A DNA stretch of 61,934 nucleotides, filler included, from Dimargaris cristalligena (lineage: Eukaryota), in the NCBI GenBank assembly GCA_003614675.1. It is 10 parts of 10 records of this genome, joined end to end, with 100 filler letters (N's around TTAATTAATTAA, not from the genome) between each part and the next. Parts side by side here need not be neighbours in the genome. Positions count along the whole stretch, not along the records: positions 37,417 to 43,484 come from ML003556.1; 9 more parts are not named here. The stretch is one strand, 5' to 3'. Positions 422 through 56,079 of this stretch are shown in pieces (the stretch's first letter is position 1; each line of letters begins with the position of its first letter). The translations under genes were made by a program, and so were the position numbers. The notes beneath the pieces were generated by a model. That model made no database searches. It was not told the origin of the DNA and saw nothing but the letters and a program-made list of their open reading frames with translations.

Positions 422-1536
422 TTACTCCAGCTTCCAGTTGTGGTTATGCAAGAAATCCTCGAAGGAATTAAATGAGCCAAAGGTATCAAAGGTCTTCTGC
501 AGATCCCGCCCACCGAAATAGCCAAACTCGACGATGTACTCATAACATTGATAAACTGTCTTGATGCCGTACAGGATGGGATCTATGGCGGCTTCTTCAG
601 GGGTCAGCACGTTAATGTGAATCTTCTTGCCGCCCACCTTGGCCAGGATGTCGATCATTTCACCCAAGGTGATGTAGCCGCAAGCTAAATCGTACGGCTG
701 GCCCAGGGTCTCCTGGGGCTTGCGGAAACAGTGCACTACGCAGTGGCCGCCGTCCCCAACAGTATCGATGGGGGGAACCACAGTTGTGGGGGGCACTGAC
801 AAATCCACCTCGTAATCACTATCGCTCCGCTTACGGAATTGGCCCGGATTGCCGGTCCAGTTGGTCATGTAATAACCAAAATTGACGACTGTGGTAGGAA
901 TCTCCAGCGATTTAATGTAAGTCTCGATTTCGGCTTTGGTGTTGAAATGAGCTACTTCGGTGTATTTACCACCCGAGATTTTTTTGGCATCGGGTAGGGA
1001 TGAAAACACCAAGTGCTGGATACCCACCTGCTTGGCTACGTCAGCAATATTCTGGCCCTGCCGGACTTCAACGGCCGGATTCTCTCTAACTTCAGGTTGC
1101 CAGAAATTGGTGGCGGCGAACAGGCCGTAGGCACCCTGGAAAGCTTTGACCAGTTGCTCCAGGTTGCTGAGGTTGCACTCGACCATTTCGACTCCTCATT
1201 GAGCGAGTTTTTGGGACTTCTCGGACTGGGAATTACGAGTAAGGCCGCGAATGTTAAACTGCTTGGAGCTAATGAGGGTTTCTACCACCGACCCACCTAG
1301 GTTGGGAAATTCATGAACATGGTACTGGTCAGTATTGGGATTGTGCGTTAAATACGATAAATAGTGTTATCCCTAAGAGATGGCTGGGACATTGTTAACG
1401 CCAACAAGATACAGGTAGAAACTTCATTTTGATACCGGATTGTGGTTTGGTATTGCTATATAATTGACAATTGCTACCTACCCTGGGCGCCTGTGGCCCC
1501 GATGACGGCGATTAGTGGCTTGTCGTGGTTGCTCAT
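422..1536 (-). pseudogene. NmrA-like NAD(P)-binding Rossmann protein, 2 exons (1536-1482, 1296-422), with an in-frame TGA at 1198-1196
   Basis: Exon 1 reads MSNHDKPLIAVIGATGAQG. After a GTAGGT..CTAG intron, exon 2 continues GSVVETL..IRGLTRN..KLAQ*GVEMVECNL..AFQGAYGLF..HFNTKAEIE, which are typical NmrA motifs. The stop is at codon 52. Confidence 0.8.
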
Positions 1537-4004
1537 GGTGATACTAGGTAGGGGGTGTACTATTAAGAGACGTGTCGGCGTAGTCGAGGTGGAACAAGGG
1601 AATATCAACTGTGTTGAAATATGACAATGGTGATGTTAAATAATACTCAGTATTGTACTAACTGGCTTAGTTGTGATGTGTTGACAAGGGGCGGCGACCC
1701 CATCTCTTTTAATTGTTTCAGGGTGGTGTGTGAGGGGAGGGGAGTCCCAGGCAACTTTCCCAGCGTCAAATATTGTATCTGGTTAAGGAAGGGCCACGGG
1801 GGCGGGACTAGTTTCAGTGTAAAATTTGCTTTGCAAAATCAGATACTGGAATGGGAGAGGTACAATCCGGGCCGCAAACCGAAAGATCCATTGCACACAG
1901 CGAACTGTATTAGTTAGAGATATTTTGTCGCCCAGCCACCCCATCTATTTGTCATCCATTTGGGTTCTTCATCCAAATGGCTTCCAATTAGAGTGAAACG
2001 GTGGCATGGCGGCGTTTCAGCTTTATCGGAAGACCCCCGAGAGAAACTTATTAGCGCAATACTCCGCATTACGGGTATAAAACATCTAGCTGTCTGACTT
2101 GCCAGTTAGTTACCAATCTATATTTCAGTTACTTGCGCAGGTGTGCCACATTTGCATTAATAAGCGACTAAACCATTCCTCCGGCTTAAATGAATCAGGG
2201 GGGGGGGCTATAACCGCCAGGAAAGGCGAGTAAACTTGTGCACAATTAAATGCCCATTGGCCTTTATTTTTAGGCGAAAATGGATGAAGAGCAATAAATC
2301 CACAGCAAACAGACTTGTATATCCGTCCAGTGAAGATAATACGCCAGCTGTGTAGGTATAGAAGTACAATACGTTTAAAGGATTATCCACTCCCTCGACG
2401 CTAGTGAAATGCACTAATAAGCCGTTACTCACCTGCCAGGCTAAGTGCAAAAAGCTGCCAAGGGTTTTGGGGCATCTGATTCTCCACCGAACTTGGGACT
2501 AGCCCTATGAATACACGTGGAATGAGTGGAACGGACATTGTAGCAAATGAGTGAGACTAATACTACATTGGTTTGGGCACTAGGCATCGCACCGGCTGCC
2601 GCCGTAGTGATGGAAGTAGCTTACCAGTAAGTATCTCCAAACATAGGGGAAGTGAAGGACTCGTGTGGTAGTGCAGTCGAAATAACTGGACATTGCTATG
2701 GTGTATATGGATTGGTGCCATTTTGGAGTCGTTGATTACCAATCTAGATTAGTCAGCACAGCCTTTGCTGACCAAGCTATGTTTTAACGGAAATTGGCGC
2801 CAACCATAAGGTCAACGACGTACACCGTCACTAACCTCAGTGGGGTGGCATTAGTGTAAAGTAGTCTGTGGTGACAAATCACCATCCGGATTGGCGAGAC
2901 TTGTAGATTTAGCCTCACTAGTGCCCAGCTCGGAATAAGTTGGTAGTGGGTTTATGGACGGCGTATCAGCCTGAATTGACATACTACTACTATGCTCGCT
3001 ATTCGTGTTGATAGGAAATATGGATTAATTAACAGCTGACCAAGTGGACGGGGGAGCCTTAAAGTTATTAGGGATGGCACATCCAACACCAGTGCAGTTA
3101 GGACTGGCTGGTTGGTATTATGGTAAGGGACCTATCTCTGTTATTCGAGCTATTGATGACCAAAAGCTGAAGCCAAATTGGTTATTTATTGTGGAGTAAA
3201 CCGGAGCACCTTTTATTTTTCTTAGACTTGTCATCATTCACCAGGTGGTTAGCTTATTTGAAGCATAGGTATAGTTGGCCTTAGAGGGAATACTATAGCA
3301 ACTATGAGATAGGTAAATAGATTAGTCAGGGACTAGTTTTATCTGGATGACTTAATTGGGAATTGGAAGAGGCTTTGGATTAATACTAAATTGTGTGGTT
3401 ATAAATGGCTCTAGCACCTAGAAAGGAATAATAAAGGATGATGCCATGGTATCAGGTATTACTATTGGAAAGGTAATATAATGTGATAAAGCCTGATATG
3501 AGTAGCCACTGTAACTAGGCTAGATTAAAGCTGGTCAGTGGGTGTGATAATAGGAGAGTATAAATAGAGTTCTGCATAAAATGAGAATTACATACTAATT
3601 TATTAATAAATATATATTTCAGTAATTTATCAACTAGGTTAAAAAATTCAATAACTGAATAGCAAACTATTATGATATCGTAAGAAAATAAAGGGTAAGA
3701 TATGAGTTTATTTAACTAAATATATATTAATAGAAAATAAAGGAAGGTTATGGATCTTTAGGGTTGCAATGAGGAGGAAATGTGATGTTATTTATAGAAA
3801 TTACTAGATAGAATTCAATAATAATAAACCAAGGACAACATTAAAGAATTTAAGTTAATTAAGCCTTTGTAAAGAAAAGAAATCACATAAATTGAGTAGT
3901 AAGTAAAAAGAGATGTGATCAAAAAGAAGCCAAGTAGCTAAAAATAAAGCAATAAACTAGGTAGAATAAAAGTGAAATATAGCTGTTAGAGATAAAAATG
4001 CTTT

Positions 4005-6169: not shown

Positions 6170-6269
6170 NNNNNNNNNNNNNNNNNNNNNNNNNNNNNNN
6201 NNNNNNNNNNNNNTTAATTAATTAANNNNNNNNNNNNNNNNNNNNNNNNNNNNNNNNNNNNNNNNNNNN
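6170..6269. other. Artificial contig spacer N44-TTAATTAATTAA-N44; the same spacer occurs at 12430-12529, 18669-18768, 24901-25000, 31111-31210, 37317-37416, 43485-43584, 49641-49740 and 55794-55893
   Basis: An identical 100-nt spacer with stop codons in all six frames occurs nine times, and the intervening contig lengths decrease monotonically. Confidence 0.98.
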
Positions 6270-12045: not shown

Positions 12046-12529
12046 TGCCGCAAATACCCGCCTACATTTTATTAAAATATGCATTTACCTTATTCTTGTA
12101 TGTGCAATCCTGAGTTGAGGAAGAGGGTTACCCTAATCGTATGAAGGTTGGAATGAACTGTAAATGGGTAAATTTATAAATGTGCAAAAGCCCTGGCTTG
12201 TATATGCTTTAGATAAGCGACTTTCATCACAACTGTACAAGTGGTTAAATGATGTGTCCATAGGAATGTGCACTGGAGGTTTATTATACATTTTAAAGCG
12301 AGCCTCTCCCCACAGCAGATATTAGTCCACACTGTTCCCTAATAGGATTCCCACTTACATTATTGTTTCAACACAGTAAAGGCAAAGCATCCCAGTTAAA
12401 GATGTGTGCTAATTGTACACAACATCAGGNNNNNNNNNNNNNNNNNNNNNNNNNNNNNNNNNNNNNNNNNNNNTTAATTAATTAANNNNNNNNNNNNNNN
12501 NNNNNNNNNNNNNNNNNNNNNNNNNNNNN

Positions 12530-17042: not shown

Positions 17043-19619
17043 CATGGTCGCCAGGATGTCTTGGTCATCTTGAGGCAGTGTTTGCCTTCAGATATGAACC
17101 CGGCTCCATAAGCTGCCCACTATGTATTGGTTCAAATTTATCAGTTTTATATTTTCGTACCCGGCCAATCCAAGTCGACCCAGTGGTGGTAGACTAACTT
17201 TGTTGTAGTACACCAGTACTATGCAACATTATAACCCGCCTACAGCTCAATATAAGGCCTAAAAGGATTGGTATATGAGGTCTGAGAAGGAAATATGTTG
17301 GACGTAATTAAAGAAATGGATAGGCGATTGGGCAGACTATCGACTGAACATGGCTTTAGGGATGTTGCAAAATAGACACTTAATGTCGATGAAACCTGGG
17401 TCAGTGTGGGAGAAAGTATAATAGGATGCAAGCCAGATATTAATTATAGAGGTAATGTGGGACAGGTTGGAGTTGATGTGCTCGCCCATGCCCGAAGCGT
17501 GGGCGGAGTGGGAAAGGGAGGGCAGGTTATTCAATCTATTGGGTATTCACTGCCAATAAGTGACATGATTATTCTATAGCCGGTGGCCCATAATAGGTAC
17601 AGACGGATTGAACAATTTTGACTGTTGGGCCTACACCCCAAATATCGCGTAGTGTTGTAAGCGAGTGGAAATGATCGTTGTTTTATTAATTGAGCTGATA
17701 TGATAGCGGTATTTAATAATAAGGAAGGTAGCAGCGATGGAGTTGCTAGTAAACTAACGAAATAATGGCGCGCTAGCAGAACACCCTTTTTATAATCGGA
17801 TTATCAGCTGCCGCGGGTCTGTTGATAAATGCATGACATATATGAGGTAGTCCCCTCTGGGTATGGATCATTAGGGTATCCCATAGAGTAGTATTTGCCG
17901 GCGCGCGGGTCTACTATAGTTCGTGGACTGGGTCGCCCTTATCAATGACCGGGGTGTCTCATTGGCGAAGTCCCCGGTTATCTAGACCTCTGCACACACT
18001 GCCATCTAGTTGAGGTATTGCTGCAGCACTATTATCATTATTGGTCTCGTCCACCGGGGTAGACGTAACAGTAGCACTGAATATCCCCCATATAAAAAAA
18101 TGAATAACTGGTGCAAGTATTTTTTAAAGAATGCTTAGGGCGAATTGAAATTGGCCAATTTACGTTTTTATAGGCGATTGTCCTGACCTAATAATGTTAG
18201 ACGGAGATGATGGCCGTTAAATAATTCTTAAAAAGTGCAAAAGAACCAAACATTTATCCAAATATTCGACTACCAACCCATGGGTAGATCTTTACATCCT
18301 GGGCCCATAACTGGGTGCCCTACTAATTGTCAAAACGGGGTATAGTATGAAGATACGCCGAGATTAGAGGCTGGTTATAACTATAAAAGAACAACCTTGT
18401 AGTCGATAACTGCATTAGTGCTGTACTGGACACTACTCAATATAGCTAACTCGTCACTCGAATTATACATTAACCATCCCCTAGTAGCTCTAACCATCAG
18501 TAGGACGTGCAGCGTCGGATGGTTTAATCCAACGCTTACCATACTACTTTTGCAATAGGCTGCTACGTACCACGATTACTTTTTCGCTGTACTTCAGACC
18601 CAAGGCCGTTGTAATCCACGTATAAAAGCTCTCTGTGTGTATTGCTAACAACTTAGCCTGGATGTTATNNNNNNNNNNNNNNNNNNNNNNNNNNNNNNNN
18701 NNNNNNNNNNNNTTAATTAATTAANNNNNNNNNNNNNNNNNNNNNNNNNNNNNNNNNNNNNNNNNNNNTATCCCATACACATATTGTGTAAAATCTTATA
18801 CAGTTGGGTTGAAGTTCACCCATTTGATGAAGCCAGATGGATGATGTTGTCTGCATCATTAGAGCGATGGACGGGAAGGTTTGATGGCCACTGGACCAAA
18901 ACAATGCAACTAATACTACTTGCTCGGGAAATCATCTATAGTTTGGGGTATACTATTAGTAACTTCTTAAAAAATGCTTCTATAGGCTAAATTGATACAA
19001 CTGTTTTCGAAGTAGATCAATTAGGCCATTTTTGCTTTACTCTAAACCATTGGAATACGGTATGTTATTTTTTGTATGTAAAACGCCAAGCGATACTTAG
19101 ATAGGTTAAGCGTGGATTCACTGCGACTAATTGACCATCCCTGTACTTCTTAAGATACACACGCCAACCCCAGACCATTGAACAATACGGTGGTAGACCT
19201 AAGTATATAGTAATTGAATAGTGAAGGGGCCCGAAGGTAATCTCATTGATGGTAGTGGTCCCGAAATAGTATTGGCACATTCCGACTGTCTAGACGTCCC
19301 TACCTACTTCTTGGCTTGTGAAGAAGAGAGGGAGTCTGACCAACCGAAACCCCCCACGTTCCGCATAGGGGGGGGGGGGGTTCTACCTACCTGTCAACTC
19401 TCCTCCATTCCGACTCCTGAACTTTTCCGTTTACCATTCGTTTTCCTAGTTGTTGGCTCAGTCTTACTAGGAGGTAGAGAAGAGAACCCTTTCCATACTT
19501 CTTTTACTATAGACCCTTCGGGATTGTGTCTCTCCCACTACACCCTCTATATACTCAATTTTTAAATATTCTCACCCCAAACACATTACTTCTCCGCCCG
19601 GCGACCGCCTTACCTCATA

Positions 19620-23765: not shown

Positions 23766-26700
23766 TCACCCTACAATATACATATCTATATATATAATTT
23801 GAGAGACTCGTATAACGATTTGACCTAACTGCAAAGGGAGTATCTGTATTTGATTATTAGTATCGGTTTCATCAAACGGCTTCTTTGATAAGCAGCCGGA
23901 TTAAACAGTCGCAGAGACCTTATGAATTTAGGAAGAGTCGCTGTGTATAATTCAATCATTAGAGAAAGGGTATACCATTAATTATTCCCCGGTGGTCTCC
24001 CATCTATATATTGATATAATTGCCAGCCGCATTACTAAGTGAAGTCAATGAGATGTTCTTTAGAAAGTCACATATGACCATGGTTATAAATTTAATAAAA
24101 GTATTGTCCAACCCCAGCACCGTTTTCTTCATTACACTCGCAATTCTTGTCTATATTATATGGTTCTATGGTCCAGCTGGCTAACTTTGGTTAGTCGTCA
24201 ATGCCATTTGGTTATAGTTCACACCACCTATTTCTATTTTATCTGTGGTAAGATTGTAATGGCACTGGTAATCATTTGAATTCAACACCCCGTTTATTCA
24301 GCTTAATTCTGTAAATAAATACCCAAAATTCAGTTGCGGTCACCTGGCTCCTTGTAAAATTATGAATATATATTAATTAATCACGTAAAACTGGTGTGGT
24401 GTAGCAGCGGATATAATAACAGTAGCAATAATAGGCGTGAATGCCTTACAATCGAATTTAAAGATGCAGTAAAATCGAACCTTAAGAATAACTAATACAA
24501 CTGTAGGCAAAACTGCCAGTGCATTTCAGAAGAATGAAAAAAGAGATGTTTTATTAAGAGCTGCAATTCTTGAAGGTATTTATACTTATGAGGTGGTTCA
24601 AGTCCACCCTGTATAGTCTTACTACTCGAATTGATTAATAATAATGAGTTTACGAATATATCTAGTTAATGATAATATCAAATACAAATGCAAGTAGTAT
24701 TTGATGTATCTCTCACTTGCTATGATATTGCAAGGCTATAAAATGATAAATCAGGACTTCACTGATAAAAGGATATAAATAGAAATTGATTAATAAGGGA
24801 ATACTACGGTCGACTAAGTGATCTCAGGTCCTACCACAATAAAACTGTTGTGCAGCGATGGGAAAAACTTAATAAAGCGGAATGAATAATAAGTCCCGAC
24901 NNNNNNNNNNNNNNNNNNNNNNNNNNNNNNNNNNNNNNNNNNNNTTAATTAATTAANNNNNNNNNNNNNNNNNNNNNNNNNNNNNNNNNNNNNNNNNNNN
25001 AAAAATAGTTTGGCCGGGATATGCTATTAGGGATTAAGCAGGCCCGGCCACAACAAGGGCTAGCTACTACATGCTTTAGTCAATCAATCATGAGGGCAAA
25101 TTGCGGAGCAGATTTATAGGCTTGAGTAAGCTTCTACTATTTGGAGCCTATTACTGATGGCCATTATCGCATGAACTACCTGTTACCAGACTCAGTGCTG
25201 AGTCTATAGATTAGATATCACAAAGGCAGATCAACTGTAATAGAGGGGAAAACAGGCGGACGTAAGTACAGACTGAAAAAGGAAGCAGCTGCAGAAGGAT
25301 AAAGCACTCTCGTAAAATACGTTTCGGGCCACTTTTTCTGGGGTTCGGCACAAATTTCAAGCTCTGGTTTTCTTACAGTGTATATCAAGAATAGAACCAA
25401 GAGAGAAGGCCGGGGTGAGGGTAATAGTCAGCTTTGGTTTCGGTGACAACTAGTCAGCTGGCCCGCTAAGGCAATAGAAAGGCAACACGTATATTGGCCT
25501 AAAATCAATTCTGCGTCAGAAATATCGGATGCACAGCGACCACCGTATGGGTAGACTGTGCGTACATGAATACAAGTAGCGGGGACCTTGGACCAAGGTG
25601 ATTATAGGGTCTAGGGGATTGTACTAATATTAAGTATACAGATTTAAGTAAGGGTCCCACTTGAATTCACCACTTTACGGAGTCTGGGCATTATTCGTGG
25701 TTTGGGCGTTTAATTTACCACTGGCACTAAGCACTCAACCCTTCGATACCCACATGTGAAGAAGAGGCTAAGCTTTAATGGAATTCATGAAGTCGTGCTT
25801 CAGTTAGGCACCTGCTTATAAATCCAAGCCCATAAAAATGGTAATTCGGTTCCTGTAGCTACCCCTAGGCCAATTCTGGCTCAAATACCTATCTCATAGG
25901 TAGAGACAGGCGTCTCCACAGAAACCCGCTATGCCCCCAGAGCTCTTCTTTGAATTCTTATTATTCAACCAGCCATATATCTAGCGCAACCCCCCCCCCC
26001 AAATAAAAAAGCTCGCATAGCCCCAACCAGCGGCATTTTCCAATGTACGCGAGGATAAGGGTAGCCTACCCAAACCCCAATAGCATGGACGGGGTGACCA
26101 CTGCATTTCCTCTCTCATATTCGGATTACGACAGTCTCGGCTGACAGATTTCTACCTTTTCCGGTTGGTTAACGGAAAACCCCCGTCTCGTACAGTTGGC
26201 TGAGCTTGGGCGAATCTCCTGGCGAGACCCCGTTGGATTGGTCGAAATTGTTCGACAATGTAGGGAGAAAAGGGGATAGTTATGTATAAAGATGGCTGAC
26301 CAAGTGCCAAAAGCCCGCTTCGTCCCAAATTACCCGCCCCCCTCACTGTTTCGTCGGCTAGGGCGCATGAACACCCCCCGAAATGTATGTACGAGGGGAA
26401 AGCACACGGCCGTTTGGTCTGACTAGCCCTCTATATGGCACACACCCCACTTTCTTCCCCTACTCATTCGCCGGATCCAACTAAAAGGCAAAACGAAGCG
26501 GGCCTATCACTGCTGGTCTGGAGTTATTCTGAGATGGTACCTGTTCCTTCGGGACGGGAACGAGTGGGCTTGGCGCATCTCAGTTACTGCGATGTAAATC
26601 TCCGGCAGATAAAGGCTATAGCAGCGGAGCGGTGTGCGTCGCAGGTAATACAGAAGAAAGGCCGTTCAACCCTTACCCCCAATGTCCCCAATACCTGACA

Positions 26701-30942: not shown

Positions 30943-31210
30943 GTAAGTCAATCCCATAAAGCTATATGTAACGATTATTATAGTAGCCAATTCGTGAGGG
31001 TTAGGAGTCAAAGATGACCCAAGTCGATGGTTTAGTTAAAATTACCACTAACCACATATTGAACTGTAACTACGTTGCCGGAAGTGGGAGTTTCCGGTGA
31101 CGGAAAACTGNNNNNNNNNNNNNNNNNNNNNNNNNNNNNNNNNNNNNNNNNNNNTTAATTAATTAANNNNNNNNNNNNNNNNNNNNNNNNNNNNNNNNNN
31201 NNNNNNNNNN

Positions 31211-37316: not shown

Positions 37317-37687
37317 NNNNNNNNNNNNNNNNNNNNNNNNNNNNNNNNNNNNNNNNNNNNTTAATTAATTAANNNNNNNNNNNNNNNNNNNNNNNNNNNN
37401 NNNNNNNNNNNNNNNNCGTCGCAACTGACACACGGTCAACGTAGGGAGGGGTCCACCAAGGTGTTTCCAAGATGTCGTAGTTCACGATGAGAAGCATTCC
37501 TTTGTCGGACATTCTACTTGAAGACGACAAAAAAAACGAATTAAGGCACATACGCTACTTTTTTCGGAACATTTGTTGCAATCGACTTCATGTTGCAAAA
37601 CGCGCTTCTCGAGAGCGAACCTCCACTGGTTGAAAAACACATGATCGTTTTTTCCCAAAGTTCCGAAGTGTTGCGAAAAAAGTAGCT

Positions 37688-38944
37688 GTGATATGGATCA
37701 TACTAAAAATGTTTAAGCAGTTGACAATAATTGAGACAAACATGCACCATATCGCAATAGAAACGCTATTGAGCCATCCTAAACTAAATCAAAAAGATAA
37801 AGAAAATCATTTTCCGCCCGATTACACTTGGTGGTATAATGGTCTTTATCCTATGACTTTGCATGTCACGAAAGAAAATATCTCAATTCTTCACAGCAAA
37901 CTTTTCGAGGCAACTAGACATGATCCTTTCAACAGCATCCTGAAATGGAACGATCTCAGTGAAAAGGTCATCAAAGATTCCGTGATCAAATTTTTTATCG
38001 ATGTCGATTTTGAAGCGCAAATATTCGAACATGAGAAAGATGTTCAAAGCTTGATCAAGAACATTGTTAGTCGCATCACTGAACCCATTTTGTAATATTC
38101 TACAAAAAAGGTTTAACATCTTGCGATCAGAAATGTTTACAATCTTCACATTTATTTTCCAGACATCATCGTCGGCAACAAACAAGCAATGTATCTTAGA
38201 AATATTGCCAATCAAATGTTGGCTCGAGAGTTCCCATCGATTCACAGTGACAGCGTTATCAATAAATTGGTTTATGCGACTGGCCTCAGGATGCTATGGT
38301 GGCACAAAGGCATGATGGGAAGTAAAACATCCAAGCAGACAAAATCGATTCATGATGATCATGAAAGAATATTTCCGGGTGACAACTATAATGAGACTTA
38401 TGCATTGGTTGTTCCTGAATCTTTTCAACCGTTGGTTCCCATGCTAGAACACCTTCAATGGACCCCACTCGCAACTGACGAGGAGGAAAATGTATCCTTT
38501 GTTGATCATGCAACAAAAATTGCGGTAACAAAAATAGCAAATTGTCTCAAAATGAGAAAAAAGAGTATCCAAGATAATTTCAAAGACAAAGAACAAACAG
38601 ATTTCAAGAAAGCGGAATATTCCATAATCAAAAAAATTATTGAAGCTGAATATTCAAGAGACCGTATTATCGAGATAGTTAAAATTAAAAAATCAACCTT
38701 TGTCGCGATTGATTGGGATTACTGTCATTTCAAAATGGCAAAACATGGCGGCAACAAACGCAATAATGACCCTCTGGTCTAATTTCTTGAAGAAAATGAC
38801 GAGCTTACAAACAATGAAGCTGATTATGTGTTGTTTGCTGACAGGTACGATTTGTACCGTAAAAAGGTCAAAAATCCTGTTTTGAGACCCAAACTGAGTG
38901 ACGCTGCAAAGCTGTTTGGAGTCAAAAGGACATGCAAAAATTAG
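37688..38944 (+). pseudogene. Degenerate large-DNA-virus-type AEP primase (D5-like primase-helicase remnant)
   Basis: One frame through three TAA stops (38093, 38114, 38780): KFFIDVD (motif I), NLHIYFPDIIV (motif II), VINKLVYATGLRMLWWHK (motif III), YCHFKMAKH Zn-finger start, then DPLV*FLEEN.ELT..DYV..DLY (D5 C-terminal wHTH-like). AT-rich and intronless. Confidence 0.65.
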
Positions 38945-39589
38945 TAAGAACTGCCTCATTCCGAGGTGGAAAAGGATTTGGTGGCATTCTATTGAAACTA
39001 GAATTCACTCAATGTTTTTGAATCTGTTGTGACCTTGCAATATAGTTTTGACATCCTAACCTCGTTTCTGTCATCGCAAACAATGTCCTGACATTCTGAT
39101 TTTTTGCGTGAATTGTCACTTCATTTAACGATAATTTAACACTTTTATGTTAAAGGCTCTCCAACCAACTGAAAGTAAATAATGTAAAATTTATAAAAAA
39201 AATCAATATTAAAAAATGACATTGAAGACAATGTAAACCCCGACTTGGATTTCTAGAAAAATAAATATTTTGCATTTTTGAAGACCCTGAGTTCGTAGTT
39301 TGAAGTCTAGCTTGTCTTGATTGTCATGATTAAATCATTACTTTTTGATAAAAATGAGATAGTGAGAAACCATCTTTTTGAGAATATTTTATTATCCCGA
39401 ATATACTATAATGTCATGTAGTGACACTTATTTCTGTTTTTTTCATTGTCGCTGACAATGAATAATCCATAATCAACAAAGTTCAAGAACAAACATATTG
39501 TATGAATGAGAGATTACACACATTCATTTTGGAATTTGGAATCTTTCTGAATATAAAAGGCAAACAGTTCAATTTGAAATTTGAATAAA

Positions 39590-40523
39590 ATGCCTATTTT
39601 CCAACAAATTGTTCCAACTTTCACAAACTTTGTAACACCTAATCTTGAAGAGAATAACAAAAAAATATGTGTCCAGTTTGTTTTTAACATGTTTGAAAAT
39701 CGAGTTCATGGTGAATTCAAAGATGTTTGTGTTGTCTTGAACGCTAATCCTTCATAAATGATGCACGAACTCAAAAATTATGAACTCGGGTTTGACTGGT
39801 TTGAGTTGTATACTTCTATCGGTACAAAGCATTATATTATGTCTGTACCGGCAGCAAGGTTGATTGCGTTGCGTCACAGCAACAAAAATGTTTCCTACTT
39901 TTTACTCGAAATTCAAAAGCTTGCTCATAAATACGATAGATTGCTGAACAACTTCAAGATGAATAAAACCTTTGCCAAAAAAAAGAGAGGAGGTTTTACT
40001 CGACGCTTACAAAGAAATACCAGGAATATATCTGATCCGTATAGGATACGTCAACGGTCACCAACTACAAGGTTGAACGAACTCACAATCTGACACAGTG
40101 ATTCCAAACTCACAGAAGGGGCCTAGGGGAGCAGGTCTTCCTTGAACATTTTATGGAATGCGAGAAGAATCAAAAGATAGAAACTCTACTCAAAAGTCAC
40201 AACATTTTGACCAATAATTTACGAAAGGTCAAAATATGCGGAACAACTCACACGGAACTGATCTATACTCATAAACATATACTCGAAAACAACAACACAC
40301 CACATACAAGAGTTTACAAATTTGTTAACGAAAACTACTAGCTGACTTCGTGTGAGAGCGATTCATATCAGATCAATCCATGCTGGCTCTGTTCAAGGAG
40401 AAAGTCCCAAGTTTCAAGGGGAAACCTAACTTTTCTGCTGTGGTTACTAAGTTAGGCGCCACAGTCAGCAAACATTGTGGGCAATCTAGAATTGAAGTAA
40501 AAGGTGCGAAAAAAATGTCCTGA
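39590..40523 (+). pseudogene. Decayed virus-like DNA-binding gene(s): AntA/MSV199-like domain (39590-40093) and a D5-C-terminal-like winged helix (~40310-40523)
   Basis: In-frame TAA at 39755; the pattern F.DV...L..YELG.D..YIMSVPAARLIAL..YFLLEIQKL; downstream KFVNENY*LTSCESD plus frameshifted LALFKEK..NFSAVVTKLG..VKG. Confidence 0.4.
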
Positions 40524-41314
40524 GGGGAAACCAGATAAAGGCTCTTGATTCGAACATAATTTCTCTGTTTATTTATTGGTAAAAGTGCGCATCAAAATTG
40601 ACGAATCAAGAGTCAGAGCGAAACAGTTGATTTCGAGATGAATGAAAAAAGATCATTCTCTCTTTGTTATTTCCTTCCAATTTTTTCTGATCGATTGACA
40701 AATGATTTGTTTTTTAATAAATGAAATCATCGCCAAGAAAAGAGAAGAAGTTTTGCTCGACGCTGACAAGATATATGAAAGTATAACGAGTATGGGTATT
40801 TTCGGATCAATGTGCATGTGTTGTAGCTTTTAGGAATCCTGATTCACAACCATTCGACTTGTTGGTCACAGGCGATGCGCTTCTGACATTGTTATCTTGG
40901 TTCAGATTCACATATCCAGAACCGGGTCCCCTTGTCTGAGGGTGAGATTTTTTATTCGTTTTGGATATTGCAGTCATTGCACGGTTTAGCTCCCATTTCT
41001 TCCCGTCGCGGAGATCGTATCTGTGGTACTGAACCTTTCACCTTTCATTGGTCTCTGTAATGCTTCTGTTTTGGTATCTCTGTGAACCCTGGACGTAGAA
41101 TCTTCCACATTTGCAGGGGTTGTTCCTGGGAGTCGGGCATGACTAGTGGTGTCCTTGTTGGTACTCTTTTATACTTCATGCATTTTTAGATATAAATTTC
41201 TTTTTTTTTCAACCTAGGTCATCGATTTGGGTGTTTGTGATGATATCAATCTACAGGACGTTGCTCCTGGATGATTCCAGTTTGAATGAAAATAACAAAT
41301 GCTGTTGACAAGGT

Positions 41315-41580
41315 TGCAAACAAAAAGATCTAAAGAACATTCTCTTGAAATGCAAACAAAAAGTTCAAACGTGGATGCAAACAAAAAGATCTCAAGAACA
41401 TTCTCTTGATATGGAAACAAAAAGATCAAACATGGATGCAAACAAAATCTTATCGATAAACGTATTTGATTTTTGCAAGGGGTGATGGGAATCAAAAAGA
41501 AAATTCAAGCCTGGATGCCAACAAAAAGCTCTCAAAGATGCAAACCAAAACATCTCAAAGATGCAAATAAAAAGATCAAA
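41315..41580 (+). repeat. Array of about 8 TGCAAACAAAAAGATC-like motifs with a 61-bp higher-order unit
   Basis: Motif starts at ~41315, 41351, 41376, 41412, 41437, 41516, 41539 and 41562 (spacings 36/25/36/25/79/23/23). Confidence 0.85.
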
Positions 41581-42231
41581 CAGAAAGTTGATAACTCGCG
41601 AGTCTTATTTTCTTGTAAAATTTCAATTAGTGTTATCTCTTACTGTATGGATTGCGTCTGAAAATTTCGGTAGTCAACCGCGAGATAAACAGGGACAACT
41701 AGTCATTTTAGTATTCAACTGCAATCTTTCGATAAGATGTAATTGTAAGTCGTTTTGAACATTTTTCACTAATTCTGGTTATCGAAGGGCAACGTCCCCA
41801 GTAGAACTCGATCTCAATTTTCAAATGCAAAAATATGTCTTGCCAAGTGTAAGACTTGCTCTAGATTGTGGAACATAGCCAGTCGATGGTGGTATCGACC
41901 CTACAGATGCCGTCTACGAGGGGGAGCCAGGGAGAGTCGAGGCTGGATGAGAATAATCCGGTTATTGCGCTGCTGGCCTTCCTAGAGGCCGCCGATATCG
42001 AGGCTTTGGTGTACATTGCTCCCGTGACTCGGTCTCATGACAACTGACAACATGACTCAGACCGAGATTGGAGAATTTGTAAGCAAAAGTCGAAGCTTGG
42101 GGGAAGAGAGACTGTCAAATCTGAAACGACGCGTCAACAAAAGAACCAAGCCCAAATCCGAGCCTCCGGCTTCACGCCGCAATCTGTTCCTTCTTCGACC
42201 ACCGTTCCAACACTCACTCCGAGAAACAATC

Positions 42232-43484
42232 ATGTCCACCAACAGCCTTGACCTTCCCTCTTCTTCCACCTCGTACTGCAACCCTTGCTACGATTCCTCA
42301 TTCAAACGCCTTTTCACAAACAAACAATGCCTTATCACCCTGCTCAACTCGCTTCTACCAATCAACGTGGTCACGATTTACAGTGTGGGCCGTACCGTGA
42401 CCCGCTCCACGCCATCGACTCCTGCAACTTCAGCCCCAGCGTCACCCACCACGCGCCCTCGTCCCCACTCCTTCTCCGGTGCATCCACCTCCCCTTTTGA
42501 CGACCTGACCATCGCCGATACCGAGGAAGTTGGCGAATTTCCCGGGGCCCGCGTGGTTCGGTACGACATCAAGGCCGTTACCATGGAGGGGACCACTGTC
42601 GACGTCGAGATGCAGAGAGCGCCCCAGCAATTCTTCTTGCATCGTATGGAGTATTACGCGTCTCGCCTTCTTGTGACGAGCCAAGGGTACTCCGGGAAGA
42701 AGGTCCCTCGAGACATCGTCGCAGAGGCGAGGATGCAAGACCCCGACACGCTGGCCGGTTTCAAGGTAGATTGTATGCGGGTTCTTTGAAAAACAAGCGG
42801 TTATTGGAATCTTCACGACTGCTGCGAGTGCGAATTTCCCCACCTCCACTTTCAGTACTAACGGTAGCCACGTTAAAACCCTCTAGGAGAAGCGCCCAAA
42901 TGTCGAGCAAAAGAAAGTACCATGGACATACGAACTTCAACCTGTCTACATTATCGCAATCTGCGAGTTTCCGGTATGTTACTTGTGTGGAGATTCAAAT
43001 CCCGTTTTTCCCTACCCCCGTCTAACGCATTTTAACTCGATTCATCTTCGGTCAGCTCTCCTCCATCAAAGGAACGCCCCCGCATCTACATGACCGATAC
43101 GTTTCGTGGGCCCAGCCTGCGTTCGATCCCGAAAAATGCATCCCTCCGCTCGACCGAAACACCATCTTCCTGCCTTTCCATGATGTCCTCCACTACTGCC
43201 TGGTCTCACTCCCCGCGTTTCGCGGTCAATTTAATGCGAACAATACATCGTTCGCCAGACCGATTCCCTCAATAATGGACATGATCCTGTGGATTCTTGC
43301 CTACGCAGGTGATGACAGACCGCGGGCAATAATCCCTAATGACATCTTGGGCAGCAGCGTGCTGAAACCGTGAGTTCCTTAACTTGTTCGCCGGGTGAAT
43401 TGGGGGGGTTATCGAGGTCTCTGTTTTATTGCTGACTGGTGTATCTCTGATTGCCTTTATTGCTCTATGCAGGCTGCTCGAACG
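42232..43484 (+). CDS. Intron-containing Rpn family / PD-(D/E)XK (PDDEXK_2-type) nuclease; exons 42232-42765, 42887-42973, 43056-43369, 43473-end (3'-truncated)
   Basis: NPCYDSSFKRLF..LITLLNSLL, RYDI, VDVEMQ, RMEYYASRL, YELQPVYIIAICEF and LHYCLVSLPAF..ILWIL. Three GT-AG introns with TACTAAC/TCTAAC/GCTGAC branch sites keep the frame. An alternative start lies at 42037. Confidence 0.8.
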
Positions 43485-43717
43485 NNNNNNNNNNNNNNNN
43501 NNNNNNNNNNNNNNNNNNNNNNNNNNNNTTAATTAATTAANNNNNNNNNNNNNNNNNNNNNNNNNNNNNNNNNNNNNNNNNNNNTCGCCCATATGGTGGC
43601 CACAAGCCGGGTCAAATTGAAAAACCCATTGCCAATGCGGCACAGCGGACAACAAACCAGCGAGTATGAAACACCCTTCGTAGAGACATCGAACAAACTG
43701 GCCTGGCACTTGGCCGA

Positions 43718-49459: not shown

Positions 49460-50120
49460 GACTTGGGGGCCTCGTACTTTTGGATACCACACTATACGCC
49501 TACTCTATAACCAGTTTATGAAGCAATTTGCCCAGCATTGCGAAATCCTCTACATGTGTTACCTTCTGCTCTAAACTATAGTTGGTATACGTTATATTAA
49601 TAAAAGCATGCGGTGAGGATCACTTCTCTACTATTTTAATNNNNNNNNNNNNNNNNNNNNNNNNNNNNNNNNNNNNNNNNNNNNTTAATTAATTAANNNN
49701 NNNNNNNNNNNNNNNNNNNNNNNNNNNNNNNNNNNNNNNNTGTTGTTCGAGAGTCTCCATTTCTTCGGTTTACCAATTTAATTATCTATACTATTTCCTC
49801 CAGAGTCCAACGCTCTACTCCCCGCATTCGCCAAAAAGGTACTTAATAGCCAATCTAACGACTACCGATATACCTGTGGAATATATAGCCTGGAACTTGC
49901 CTACTTTGATATTCACAATCGCTTTGGCGTGCTTAAATAATATCTGTTTTATCATTGAGAGGAACCTGGTTTCCCTGTCCACCGGTATAAGGTCATGTGA
50001 CTAACTGCTATGCTGGTCGTATACACTTTCACCTCATTCTACCGCTTCTCCTGTTCAGTACGGCTAGATTTACCACCACCTGCGGCCCTCATCAACTTCC
50101 CGTTTATACACACACATACT

Positions 50121-54463: not shown

Positions 54464-56079
54464 GCGGTCAAGTTAAGAGAAATGAGTGGGATGGGTTGCC
54501 TTGAAAAATTCACCCGATCCCAGAAGAAGTCTAAGAAACTAATAGATATACATAAATACTCAATTAGAAAAGAAAGGGAAAGGTTTAACTGGGCGGTATA
54601 ACAAAGAATCCGTTAAATGAGGTAAAAATTACTGGTTAAAAAAATATTCACCCGGATATTTTCCCACATATTTTAAAACGTCATCCAGCCAGGCCGAATT
54701 TCATACATACTCTATAATATTGTCAGTATGACATCCAGGTTGATAAGTTTGCTCCTCAATTAGCTAGATGCTTGCAGTTTGGTGGGGCCTGCCAATAATA
54801 GCTAGACTCTAATTTACGCCTGGGTAAAACAAACCACCAGCGCGGACTCAGGTGGCTGTAGACACCACTGCACTACTTCGCTATTATAAAAGTCGCCACC
54901 ACCATAAAAACGCCAGCGTTGACGACCTACCTAAATAAACGGACTTAGTCAGTCTCTGAGCAATTCCCCGCCTCCTTCCAATCCAGTTTATCAGACAATA
55001 GTCAGCGAGGGTGCGGTATTCAAGTGTTAGAAAACAGTACATATATCCTAAAGCAGAAGTCGGCTGGAAATTCCCTTGGCATAAAGATCAAGCACTAATC
55101 CTAAAGTAGAAGGATCTTTACACTGCTACATTTCTTAATATTGCTTCCCCAGTAACCAAACTACTTGGGGCCAAGTGCCATTAGTCAGAGTACAAAAATC
55201 CTGGGGCCATCTAAAATAATGACAGGGACCTAACCCCATTTCAGGAAATTGGTACATTCTATGTATCATCATCAAGATATCATTATCAAAGACGTGCTTT
55301 TCTTCATCATTAGCCTGCTTTCACTGTTATGGGCTTAGGTTGGAAACTCCCTCTTTTATGAACTAGTTAATACAGTGGAATGTCAGTCCATTGGTGGAGT
55401 TTCTCAGATACCAGCACTGTAGCAATACCATATGCTGGGCTGTTTATGGATTTCAAGTAACCCCCAGACTGACTGTCATGGCTGGTTAATTTGAGCTACA
55501 AGAATAACCAGCCATATAAGTAAAAAAACCCATACTAACAAATGGGTGAAATTAATATTTAATATTATCAGAATATATACCCATTATCCTACTATGTTTT
55601 ATTCCCATTATTTTATTCCCTGTATTACTTAGTTATTGATTTGTATTTATTAGTTGTCATCATTCTTCTCCTACCCCTTGAGTTGGGATATAACCCCAAC
55701 CATTCCCCCACAGCTTGCTCTTTAGCTTGCAACTCCTTTTTTGTTTTCCCTTTTCGATATCTAGTCTAATAAACCTATTTTCCATCCTTCAAANNNNNNN
55801 NNNNNNNNNNNNNNNNNNNNNNNNNNNNNNNNNNNNNTTAATTAATTAANNNNNNNNNNNNNNNNNNNNNNNNNNNNNNNNNNNNNNNNNNNNATTTTTA
55901 TCTATAGAACCATTTATTAGCAAAAGACCCCGCGTATTGGACGCAGGGGTCCGACTCCGTTGGAGGGGAGGTTGACCTCAGCCACCGGCAACCTAAATGA
56001 ACGACCCGCCGCTAGGCAAACTATATATGGTACATCGCCTCTAAAAGACACGCCGGCTAGCGCTAGCCGCTGGCCCTTG

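Follow-up and report, generated by a model that had tools for sequence, protein, structure and literature searches.

Finding a nuclease gene of bacterial type, split by introns, in the genome assembly of Dimargaris cristalligena raises the question of whether the gene belongs to this fungus or reached the assembly from elsewhere, and what such a nuclease might do in a eukaryote. Dimargaris cristalligena is a mycoparasitic fungus of the Zoopagomycota. The window, i.e., the whole stretch of DNA analysed, comprises 61,934 nucleotides, and a preliminary description had read the locus as an Rpn/PD-(D/E)XK nuclease that was acquired horizontally and then domesticated. In 2023, Rpn proteins were characterized as toxic nucleases that act in defence and are kept under control by a protein encoded inside their own gene, in a paper whose accessible text contains 0 occurrences of 'eukaryot' (Zhong et al. 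2023, PMC10400941). No description of a fungal or eukaryote-specific PDDEXK_2 clade was found in the literature. The accessible part of a recent preprint places PF12784 genes among Wolbachia-to-termite transfers, as transposon-related recent inserts (bioRxiv 10.1101/2025.03.16.643567). As appears to be the case here, a bacterial PDDEXK_2 gene has there entered a eukaryotic genome by horizontal transfer; in contrast to the present case, that text does not describe an intron-bearing, diversified, eukaryote-specific clade.

Gene structure and splicing

The gene and its landmarks are arranged on the plus strand as follows.

42037..42231, plus strand: 5′ leader, open in the frame of the gene from 42028, with in-frame ATGs at 42037 and 42052
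42232..42765, plus strand: exon 1, 178 codons, opened by the ATG at 42232; carries the PF12784 match; RNA contigs cover 42217-42501
42391..42510, plus strand: Ser/Thr/Pro-rich insert specific to the clade, spanning about residues 54-93 (TVTRSTPSTPATSAPASPTTRPRPHSFSGASTSP); contains S/T-P sites and an RxRxxS motif
42565..42615, plus strand: catalytic residues D112 (42565-42567), E126 (42607-42609) and Q128 (42613-42615), from an alignment of 106 sequences
42703..42704, plus strand: alternative GT donor, by which GYSGKK would be joined to exon 2 and 21 codons skipped in frame (P0019)
42766..42886, plus strand: intron 1, 121 nt, phase 0, GTAGAT..TAG, TACTAAC branch site, from sequence signals
42887..42973, plus strand: exon 2, 29 codons, with the conserved strand W.YELQPVYIIAICEF; an RNA contig covers 42891-42972
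42974..43055, plus strand: intron 2, 82 nt, phase 0, GTATGT..CAG, TCTAAC branch site, splicing seen in RNA
43056..43369, plus strand: exon 3, 314 nt (104 codons and 2 bases), 61% identical to P0001; RNA covers 43055-43306
43370..43472, plus strand: intron 3, 103 nt, phase 2, GTGAGT..CAG, GCTGAC branch site, at the boundary between nuclease body and C-terminal tail
43473..43484, plus strand: first 12 nt of exon 4, where the contig ends; about 70 codons present in relatives are missing

The three GT..AG introns with their branch sites are present as first described and restore a homologous reading frame, in which the spliced protein aligns to its relatives P0001, P0002, P0004 and L001 across all three junctions. 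They had also been called in-phase, which holds for introns 1 and 2; intron 3 is of phase 2 because exon 3 measures 314 nt, and a set of three in-phase introns is ruled out.

The gene is transcribed, and intron 2 is removed in RNA. A 230-nt RNA contig joins 42972/3 to 43055/6 and skips exactly the 82 nt with GT..AG ends, a joint absent from DNA run X1, in which intron 2 is retained. The RNA comes from environmental metatranscriptomes at 98-99.5% identity rather than from a culture of D. cristalligena, and runs X8 and X9 are counted as one data set because their statistics are identical. Of the junctions that were to be sought in RNA, that of intron 2 was thus found in one data set, while no RNA contig crosses the annotated junctions of introns 1 and 3; RNA cover is absent over these two introns and over 42500-42890. 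The acceptor of intron 1 is supported by P0019, a 64 aa database protein that matches the window at 100% identity to the left and right of the junction 42702|42887 and points to a different donor. The support for the annotated donor comes from the retained segment PRD..ARMQDPDT, which is homologous in P0001 and P0002. For intron 3, the joined sequence K-P|L-L-E-R has counterparts in P0001 (QPLLEKL) and P0009 (VKPLLKNL).

These results bear on the idea that the apparent intron-bearing gene is a misreading of bacterial DNA contaminating the fungal assembly. The great majority of the family is bacterial, and a 2012 superfamily survey lists PF12784 as 'Bacteria' (PMC3424549). Against this stand a frame broken by three GT..AG segments with branch sites, one of them precisely removed in RNA, and an insert in the protein that is absent from all 66 bacterial-type rows of the tree discussed below. 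Contamination by bacteria is therefore extremely improbable, the removal of intron 2 in RNA ruling it out unless the RNA contigs are chimeric.

Both ends of the gene call for comment. The start codon (42037, 42052 or 42232) is not settled by RNA because the RNA contig begins at 42217; a start at 42037 or 42052 would add the basic stretch KRRVNKRTKPK. The gene is truncated: it runs off the contig after 12 nt of exon 4, and the C-terminal ~70 residues known from relatives lie beyond the contig end at 43484. A tblastn search of the window with the tail of P0001 (residues 284-356) gave no match, and a contig of DNA run X1 extends 255 nt past 43484.

A PDDEXK_2 nuclease and its insert-bearing relatives

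The gene product is a PDDEXK_2 (Rpn-like) PD-(D/E)XK nuclease. Exon 1 alone matches Pfam PF12784 PDDEXK_2 with 54.9 bits (E 1.3e-14; gathering score 27.4), and 29 of the 30 nearest ESM Atlas clusters are PDDEXK_2. The motifs named in the preliminary description were found, with DSSFKRLF at residues 21-28, RYDI at 110-113, VEMQ at 125-128, and RMEYYASRL; the last core strand, PVY.I.I..F, is matched by LQPVYIIAICEF, encoded by exon 2, which is present in the RNA contig. Among these, LP.F..W is matched approximately (SLPAFRGQF). All conserved positions are occupied in the window protein (D21, F24, K25, D112, E126, Q128, R138, Y141, Y142); in alignment A6, with 106 sequences, conservation of D/F/E/Q/R/Y is 90% or more, and D does not vary. 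VEMQ had been regarded as a variant typical of the family, and ExQ is indeed the family norm, since [IVLF]x[IVLF]E[IVLMF][QK] occurs in most of the 185 relatives scanned. We infer that the product acts as a Mg2+-dependent DNA endonuclease.

The likeness to the toxin/antitoxin Rpn proteins of E. coli, which had been invoked for this gene, extends to its Rpn-like PDDEXK_2 character and not to the profiles of the E. coli proteins themselves. The profile check proposed for PF12784 and PF04754 was positive for the former; for PF04754, the YhgA-like family to which we take the E. coli Rpn proteins to belong, none of the three exons gave a Pfam match at E<=1. With NCBIfam TIGR01784, exon 1 scores 30.9 bits and full-length clade members 23.6-48.2 bits (8/8), values that are significant by E-value and below the cut-off of 52.1. 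PADLOC returned no match, and a sequence search of the PDB found no relative.

Bacterial PDDEXK_2 proteins, annotated as Rpn family recombination-promoting nuclease/putative transposase, occur, e.g., in Microcystaceae cyanobacteria, Fibrobacter, and Bacteroidales. The D..FK helix, D/ExQ, the R..YY helix, and the PVY.I.I..F strand are common to them and to the protein described here, as is membership of the family above its gathering score. Identity to the bacterial proteins is ~23-31%, and several differences exist: the clade to which the window protein belongs carries a disordered Ser/Thr/Pro-rich insert of 30-40 residues before the core, its linker before the last strand is longer and variable, and the window gene has three spliceosomal introns.

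An exhaustive HMM search yielded 241 matches at E<=1e-3, of which 34 reach E<=1e-10. In the tree, the insert-bearing rows fell on one side of a branch without exception (29/29, SH-aLRT 99); the 66 bacterial-type rows used in tree building lack the clade insert. D..FK and ExQ are spaced 76-105 residues apart in clade members and 59-72 (mostly 59-68) in bacterial-type relatives. Within the insert, 25 of 29 sequences have at least one S/T-P site, 17 of 29 have [RK]x[RK]xx[ST], and SAPx[ST] is found in 14 of 29. Identity of clade members to the window protein ranges from 24 to 60%. A one-off acquisition by this fungus does not agree with the placement of the gene in a diverse clade with its own insert. 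One member, P0002, has a gene model fused to a Ku70/80 C-terminal arm, a eukaryotic domain.

The phylogeny recovered a clade, and no close bacterial donor was found: the best bacterial matches are ~23-31% identical, and the sister group of the clade is an open fork in the tree. A profile search of genome contigs gave 15 prokaryotic relatives at 23-31% identity, except for one 50-residue match at 39%. In metagenomes, a profile search with alignment A5 detected 43 loci, of which L001 is of the insert type and L002, also examined, is bacterial-type, the others showing 20-54% identity; the close alignment A4 found no relative there. A broad distribution of orthologs across fungi, which would have spoken for vertical inheritance, was not seen among annotated fungi, where the distribution among named genomes is extremely patchy. 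The gene represents a real, expressed and small eukaryotic branch of an otherwise bacterial nuclease family, the label 'eukaryotic' being based on P0002, L001, and two Blyttiomyces-labelled proteins and unproven for all rows.

That the gene has lost its function and is now decaying after an old transfer is very unlikely. Its end is unseen, truncation, frameshift or fusion to unrelated sequence seems to have affected P0003, P0013, P0014, and P0025, and two published gene models (P0001 and P0003) skip the equivalent of exon 2. On the other hand, 316 codons are open across the four exons, the conserved catalytic and structural residues are all intact, the transcript has intron 2 correctly spliced and exon 2 included, and an identity of 60-70% to P0001 with few gaps argues for constraint.

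The contig, its host, and the origin of the gene

Two further features concern the surroundings of the gene.

37417..43484, no strand: the gene's own contig, 6068 nt, with an artificial N44-TTAATTAATTAA-N44 linker on each side
37634..38782, plus strand: AT-rich pair of upstream ORFs (153 and 221 aa) that share a frame, with two in-frame TAA codons between them

The window is made up of ten unrelated ~6-kb contigs in descending order of length (6169 to 6041 nt), with linkers at regular steps of ~6.2 kb. The contigs carry mostly intact housekeeping genes, namely those for NmrA, PanE, MutS, WD40, FG-GAP, kinesin, RPE65, IPK, SLS1, and Nup133 proteins. The nuclease had been described as the sole gene without interruption on a contig whose other genes were decayed and virus-like; this was a misreading of concatenated contigs with mostly ordinary genes, and a virus-like contig was rejected as the setting of the window as a whole. 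A virus-like context may apply to the AT-rich upstream part of the nuclease contig (37417-43484). There, ~4.6 kb upstream of the nuclease gene are AT-rich, and the ORF pair, with a GC3 of 0.38-0.40, has an ESM Atlas lead to AEP_C962R (score 0.92; recognition falls short of the usual mark). Pfam searches of the upstream AT-rich ORFs, including a read-through with X at the two stops, gave no significant match, and the pair is possibly a decayed virus-like AEP (C962R-type) primase, a reading that goes back to this one Atlas lead.

Could the contig derive from another eukaryote in the sequenced material, be it the host fungus or an environmental contaminant, so that the gene is real and belongs elsewhere? 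No sequence shared between the nuclease contig and the other nine was found in a repeat and similarity comparison within the window, so that nothing links them. The sequence is present in DNA runs of three organism codes, in only one of three runs for two of these, and near-identical RNA occurs in plant and moss metatranscriptomes. Moreover, no D. cristalligena protein was returned for the nuclease gene, though two annotated ones cover MSH1, whose ORF in the window is 100% identical to a named D. cristalligena protein; the missing gene model can be explained by the position of the gene at a contig end. On the opposite side, the GC content of the gene and its GC3 (0.65, versus 0.43-0.79 in 12 host ORFs of the window) match the other contigs, as does the pattern of GC-rich genes among AT-rich spacers. 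All four listed runs of organism code A contain 93-97% of the sampled words, at a k-mer depth of ~180. A foreign eukaryotic source is therefore considered unlikely, and the proposal of a bacterial-type nuclease in a eukaryote with spliceosomal introns is borne out by the PF12784 match, the excision of intron 2 in RNA, and the host-like GC3.

Named relatives are limited to two Blyttiomyces helicus proteins, BDK51DRAFT_32187 (P0001) and BDK51DRAFT_34012 (P0013), which belong by label to another phylum, the Chytridiomycota, and are functionally unannotated. Identity of P0001 to the window protein is 69-70% within exon 1 and 60% when the entire spliced protein is compared; P0013 is ~32-40% identical. 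Both share the clade insert and the sequence of the intron 3 junction with the window gene. P0001 supplies the tail that the window gene lacks, and its model is without the exon 2 equivalent; P0013 reads through the position of intron 2. The three proteins were grouped at SH-aLRT 99 in an earlier tree, and the trio is not among the starred sets of the second. An identity of 60-70% is too close for P0001 to reflect vertical descent between phyla. Similarity of this degree between genes labelled as two phyla implies that the gene was transferred from fungus to fungus or that contigs of a reference genome carry wrong labels. The Blyttiomyces-labelled contigs are short (2193 and 4455 nt), and the sample is described, in the accessible part of the source, as containing DNA of many non-target species (PMC6784888). 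The two contigs may therefore not be chytrid at all.

This similarity also lends weight to the suggestion that the gene is present or recent cargo of a mobile or virus-derived element moving between distant fungi, rather than a domesticated host gene passed on by vertical inheritance. For comparison, MSH1 of D. cristalligena is only 56-58% identical to that of other Dimargaritales and 41% to that of Coemansia, and no chytrid appears among the best 120 MSH1 matches. The extreme patchiness of the gene and the AT-rich upstream region with its possible broken primase would fit such cargo, as would signs of further copies: in DNA run X1, approximately doubled depth and a branching contig at 42083-42245 suggest a second copy sharing the 5′ leader, and P0003 looks like a second copy without the nuclease core. 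However, in GC3 (0.65) the gene resembles host genes rather than its AT-rich neighbour, and it is expressed and carries three introns. Three pattern-limited scans of viral contigs revealed no relative, the nuclease contig has neither terminal repeats nor a transposase, and the doubtful origin of the Blyttiomyces-labelled contigs weakens the argument from distant hosts. A gene that is or recently was mobile cargo is thus unlikely. The locus is probably a transcribed nuclear gene of D. cristalligena encoding an Rpn-like PD-(D/E)XK DNA nuclease, a member of a eukaryote-adapted branch of the bacterial family.

A predicted dimerising tail and a proposed role

Structure and dimerisation were modelled on P0004, a relative 33% identical to the window protein. 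The AlphaFold2 model (pLDDT 86.4, pTM 0.81) has a disordered loop in the place of the insert (pLDDT below 50). Its core aligns to PD-(D/E)XK nucleases (NucS, Z 6.2; McrC, Z 5.8; Can2; R.BspD6I) and its tail finds its best match among 48,161 chains in the crystal structure of E. coli RpnA-S (Z 6.8, rmsd 1.6 Å, 46/46 residues), all these matches having Z below 8, a range that can reflect a common arrangement. A Foldseek search against the PDB gave no match at E<=1e-3. According to the accessible text on E. coli RpnA-E and RpnP2, a nuclease body is followed by a small helical dimerising tail, and RpnS has variable four-residue repeats (PMC10400941). Clade relatives likewise keep, as bacterial PDDEXK_2 proteins do, a C-terminal helix in which a four-residue unit containing G is repeated. 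When 15 clade members were scanned, 13 proved to have 2-6 xGxx repeats in the tail, and the sequence of one of these, P0002, breaks off within the repeat.

The P0004 tail is modelled as a homodimer. The model scored 0.36 versus 0.00 for the best of three controls, at a mark that 21 of 30 homodimers of solved structure reach, compared with 0 of 23 such monomers, a pass that possibly reflects memory of the solved RpnA-S dimer. Runs of the model agree in at least 81% of contacts (pLDDT at least 74), with an interface at residues 298-328 that includes the repeat helix. Judged from P0004, full-length relatives are predicted to carry an RpnS-like dimerising tail.

On this basis, the following course can be envisaged. 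The branch would have arisen from one old bacterial-type ancestor and would have gained a disordered Ser/Thr/Pro-rich loop between the N-terminal helix and the catalytic core; spliceosomal introns would have been gained in the lineage of the window gene. The nuclease would act, as bacterial Rpn proteins do, as a dimer held by the C-terminal helix with its xGxx repeats, followed by a small three-helix RpnS-like domain, and its potentially toxic activity might be restrained by the tail together with phosphorylation of the inserted loop at S/T-P and RxRxxS sites. It would most likely serve to defend the cell against foreign DNA or to persist selfishly, and not as a housekeeping gene.

A bolder version holds that early-diverging fungi carry a eukaryotic Rpn toxin/intragenic-antitoxin nuclease, mobile between Zoopagomycota and Chytridiomycota, which would retain the dimerising tail with its variable repeats, have the phospho-regulated loop as a safety catch and possibly travel with virus-like DNA. 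As a whole this seems improbable. A bacterial internal start site does not simply transfer to eukaryotic mRNA. If true, eukaryotes would possess a mobile gene of innate immunity or of the selfish 'poison-antidote' kind. Eukaryotic descendants are known for several bacterial anti-phage modules, and the present gene would add to these an Rpn-like nuclease with a eukaryote-specific regulatory loop. The locus would be a tractable place to test how a bacterial DNase is tamed in a eukaryote, and it makes the gain of introns after transfer datable, because L001 is uninterrupted at the intron positions of the window gene. At L001, 625 nt of AT-rich upstream sequence lie outside the reading frame.

Structure and transcription of the nuclease gene

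The gene read from the ATG at 42232 is genuine and expressed. It is a eukaryotic, intron-bearing member of a bacterial nuclease family and belongs to an insert-bearing clade without previous description. The preliminary description, which had proposed an Rpn nuclease split by three in-phase introns on a contig of decayed virus-like genes, is partly confirmed as an observation and partly supported as an interpretation: the intron-bearing eukaryotic nuclease stands, but the common phase of the introns and a virus-like setting for the whole window do not. The three GT–AG introns with branch sites are present; introns 1 and 2 lie in phase 0 and intron 3 lies in phase 2, because exon 3 comprises 104 codons plus two bases.

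Features of the nuclease gene
42232–42765, plus strand: exon 1, 178 codons, beginning with ATG at 42232
42766–42886, plus strand: intron 1, 121 nt, GTAGAT..TAG, TACTAAC 23 nt before AG, phase 0
42887–42973, plus strand: exon 2, 29 codons
42974–43055, plus strand: intron 2, 82 nt, GTATGT..CAG, TCTAAC, phase 0
43056–43369, plus strand: exon 3, 314 nt
43370–43472, plus strand: intron 3, 103 nt, GTGAGT..CAG, GCTGAC, phase 2
43473–43484, plus strand: start of exon 4, 12 nt

Computational joining of the exons yields 316 open codons. Position 43484 is followed directly by 44 N, TTAATTAATTAA, and 44 N; the gene is truncated by the contig end in the present assembly. The tail of its relatives (residues 284–356 of the Blyttiomyces helicus-labelled protein P0001) has no match anywhere else in the window, and a contig of the DNA run X1 reaches 255 nt past 43484. 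At the other end, the frame stays open as far as 42028 and holds further ATGs at 42037 and 42052, so that translation may begin upstream of 42232. The extension from these ATGs (42037–42231, plus strand) would give the protein a basic KRRVNKRTKPK stretch, which looks like a nuclear localisation signal.

Four runs, including X1, were aligned to the nuclease-gene stretch. In one metatranscriptome contig of 230 nt, 42972/3 is followed directly by 43055/6; the 82 nt left out have GT..AG ends and are exactly intron 2, which the DNA run X1 retains. This contig occurs with identical statistics in the RNA runs X8 and X9, which are probably one data set. RNA contigs also cover 42217–42501 and 43137–43306 at 98–99.5% identity; none crosses intron 1 or intron 3 in the runs compared. 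The intron 1 acceptor is confirmed by the 64-aa database protein P0019, identical to the window protein on either side of a 42702|42887 junction and using an alternative GT donor at 42703. The annotated intron 1 donor keeps a PRD..ARMQDPDT segment that is present in P0001 and P0002 too, and the intron 3 junction, KP|LLER, matches QPLLEKL in P0001 and VKPLLKNL in P0009. The gene models of P0001 and P0003 join the end of exon 1 straight to exon 3, without the conserved PVY.I.I..F strand. This exon 2 skipping is probably a prediction error, since exon 2 is present in the RNA contig that covers the gene in the window.

Family membership and the insert-bearing clade

Exon 1 alone matches Pfam PDDEXK_2 with 54.9 bits against a cut-off of 27.4, and the NCBIfam model TIGR01784, 'Rpn family', with 30.9 bits, below its cut-off of 52.1. 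Of the two families named for a profile search, PF12784 and PF04754, PDDEXK_2 was thus matched, and the Pfam search of the exons gave no match to PF04754. Among the 30 ESM Atlas clusters nearest to it, 29 are bacterial PDDEXK_2. An alignment of 106 relatives shows an invariant catalytic D and conservation of at least 90% at each of the following: D and F near the N-terminus, both E and Q in ExQ, and R and Y in the next helix. All of these residues are found in the window protein (D21, F24, D112, E126, Q128, R138, Y142), and the motifs had been read correctly; the family match is far beyond chance.

A word-indexed search with exon 1 returned a single match, P0001 (BDK51DRAFT_32187 of B. helicus, 356 aa, 70% identity), encoded on a 2193-nt contig. 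An exhaustive HMM search covering 1.84 billion representatives found 241 relatives at E≤1e-3, of which 34 reach E≤1e-10 and 2 reach E≤1e-30. The best ~35 share a Ser/Thr/Pro-rich segment, placed after the D..FK helix and before the core, that the bacterial-type relatives compared lack; D..FK-to-ExQ spacing is 76–105 residues in insert-bearing relatives versus 59–72 (mostly 59–68) in bacterial-type ones. A maximum-likelihood tree was built from 29 insert-bearing and 66 bacterial-type rows (95 in all), with insert columns removed by a 50% fill rule. A branch with SH-aLRT 99 separates all 29 insert rows from the others; the phylogeny against homologs thus sets the clade apart but does not resolve its sister group. 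Among 185,579 prokaryote genomes, a pattern-limited scan yielded 15 relatives at 23–31% identity, with one exception of 39% over 50 residues.

Four signs point to a eukaryotic clade: the introns of the window gene, the two Blyttiomyces-labelled member proteins, the Ku70/80 arm in the gene model of P0002, and the metagenome contig L001, in which 625 nt of AT-rich sequence outside the reading frame lie upstream of a 325-codon ORF (626–1600, plus strand). The introns of the window gene are not common to the whole clade—unless L001 is a cDNA—because this ORF runs uninterrupted where introns 1 and 2 would lie. The P0002 gene model (596 aa) fuses a Ku70/80 C-terminal arm (residues 40–119) to a PDDEXK_2 nuclease (326–386); this may be a genuine fusion to a protein that binds DNA ends, or the predictor may have joined two neighbouring genes.

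Window protein and P0001 are 60% identical overall and 69–70% in exon 1, whereas clade members in general show 24–38% identity to the window protein. As a yardstick, MSH1 of this assembly shares 56–58% identity with its counterparts in other Dimargaritales; for Coemansia and Syncephalis the value is 41%. On these identities, vertical descent between phyla cannot explain the similarity. The gene may have moved between eukaryotes; alternatively, the two short Blyttiomyces-labelled contigs may derive from a non-target fungus, as the authors state that the Blyttiomyces samples contained DNA from many other species (PMC6784888).

One study describes Rpn proteins as toxins with an intragenic antitoxin acting against phage and does not mention eukaryotes (PMC10400941). 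A 2012 PD-(D/E)XK survey treats PF12784 as bacterial putative transposases (PMC3424549), and in termites PF12784 has been listed as one of the transfers derived from Wolbachia (bioRxiv 10.1101/2025.03.16.643567). No description of a fungal or eukaryote-specific PDDEXK_2/PF12784 clade was found in the literature searched.

The contig and its surroundings

The window consists of size-sorted draft contigs, artificially joined: ten pieces descend in length from 6169 to 6041 nt, and an identical N44-TTAATTAATTAA-N44 block occurs nine times in steps of ~6.2 kb. Gene order or 'interrupted genes' read across these linkers are therefore artefacts.

Linkers N44-TTAATTAATTAA-N44
6170–6269
12430–12529
18669–18768
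24901–25000
31111–31210
37317–37416
43485–43584
49641–49740
55794–55893

The true contig of the nuclease gene is 37417–43484, and genes past its linkers are not genomic neighbours. The other pieces carry genes of ordinary types: NmrA-like, ketopantoate reductase, MutS (the MSH1 ORF of piece 2, 1185 codons, 100% identical to a partial MutS protein 1 of Dimargaris cristalligena), WD40, FG-GAP, kinesin, RPE65, inositol polyphosphate kinase, SLS1, and Nup133. A retroelement integrase fragment, the sole one, lies on another contig (13419–14012, plus strand; Integrase_H2C2 44 bits, weak rve).

The nuclease-gene contig likely belongs to D. cristalligena, a zoopagomycete mycoparasite (PMC6784888). GC3 of the gene is 0.65, and 12 other window ORFs span 0.43–0.79. 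No sequence common to this contig and the other window contigs was found, and the nuclease-gene stretch is present in DNA runs filed under three organism codes.

The 4.6 kb upstream of the gene are AT-rich (GC 0.28–0.44 in 400-nt windows), unlike the nuclease gene in composition, and contain two ORFs in one frame with two TAA codons between them.

Upstream AT-rich ORFs
37634–38095, plus strand: first ORF
38117–38782, plus strand: second ORF

Neither has a Pfam match. The nearest ESM Atlas clusters of the second are AEP_C962R (virus-type) primases, with a score of 0.92 and recognition below the usual mark; GC3 of the ORFs is 0.38–0.40, under all host ORFs measured. A decayed virus-like gene (37634–38782) may thus adjoin the nuclease gene, and the earlier 'decayed virus-like genes' may be right for contig 37417–43484, although not for the window with its ordinary genes.

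In X1, k-mer depth roughly doubles over the 5′ leader (42083–42245) and the contig branches; a C/A variant lies at 42215 (depth 124/266). P0003 has the leader and exon 3 in common with the window gene but no nuclease core. The depth and branching, together with P0003, suggest that this genome or a close one contains a second copy, which is truncated.

Predicted structure and possible function

The structure was modelled on P0004, a full-length member of the clade with 33% identity to the window protein, using a 106-sequence alignment, giving pLDDT 86.4 and pTM 0.81, with pLDDT <50 in the insert (residues 55–75) and a second low-confidence linker before the last strand. Foldseek found nothing at E≤1e-3. 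With an exhaustive aligner, the core (14–245) matched the PD-(D/E)XK nucleases NucS (2vld, Z 6.2), McrC (6hz4, Z 5.8), Can2, and R.BspD6I. For the tail, the top match out of 48,161 chains was E. coli RpnA-S (7th0; Z 6.8, rmsd 1.6 Å, 46/46 residues). All these matches have Z <8, a level at which the resemblance may be only that of a common arrangement. The tail helix bears two to six xGxx repeats in 13 of 15 clade members scanned, among them P0002, which ends within a repeat; Zhong et al. report that the helix by which RpnS dimerises contains a variable repeat of four residues (PMC10400941). A homodimer model of P0004 residues 270–354 scored 0.36 versus 0.00 for the best of three controls, a mark attained by 21/30 solved homodimers and 0/23 monomers, with contact agreement of at least 81%, pLDDT of at least 74, and an interface (298–328) taking in the repeats. 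This modelled score may be recall of a known dimer, because the RpnA-S dimer is already solved.

As to function, we infer that the window protein would be a dimeric metal-dependent DNA endonuclease, whose activity could be gated by the tail and by phosphorylation of the insert loop, and which might have a role in defending against foreign DNA or in selfish maintenance. At least one S/T-P motif occurs in 25 of the 29 insert sequences, SAPx[ST] in 14, and [RK]x[RK]xx[ST] in 17, the window having RPRPHS.
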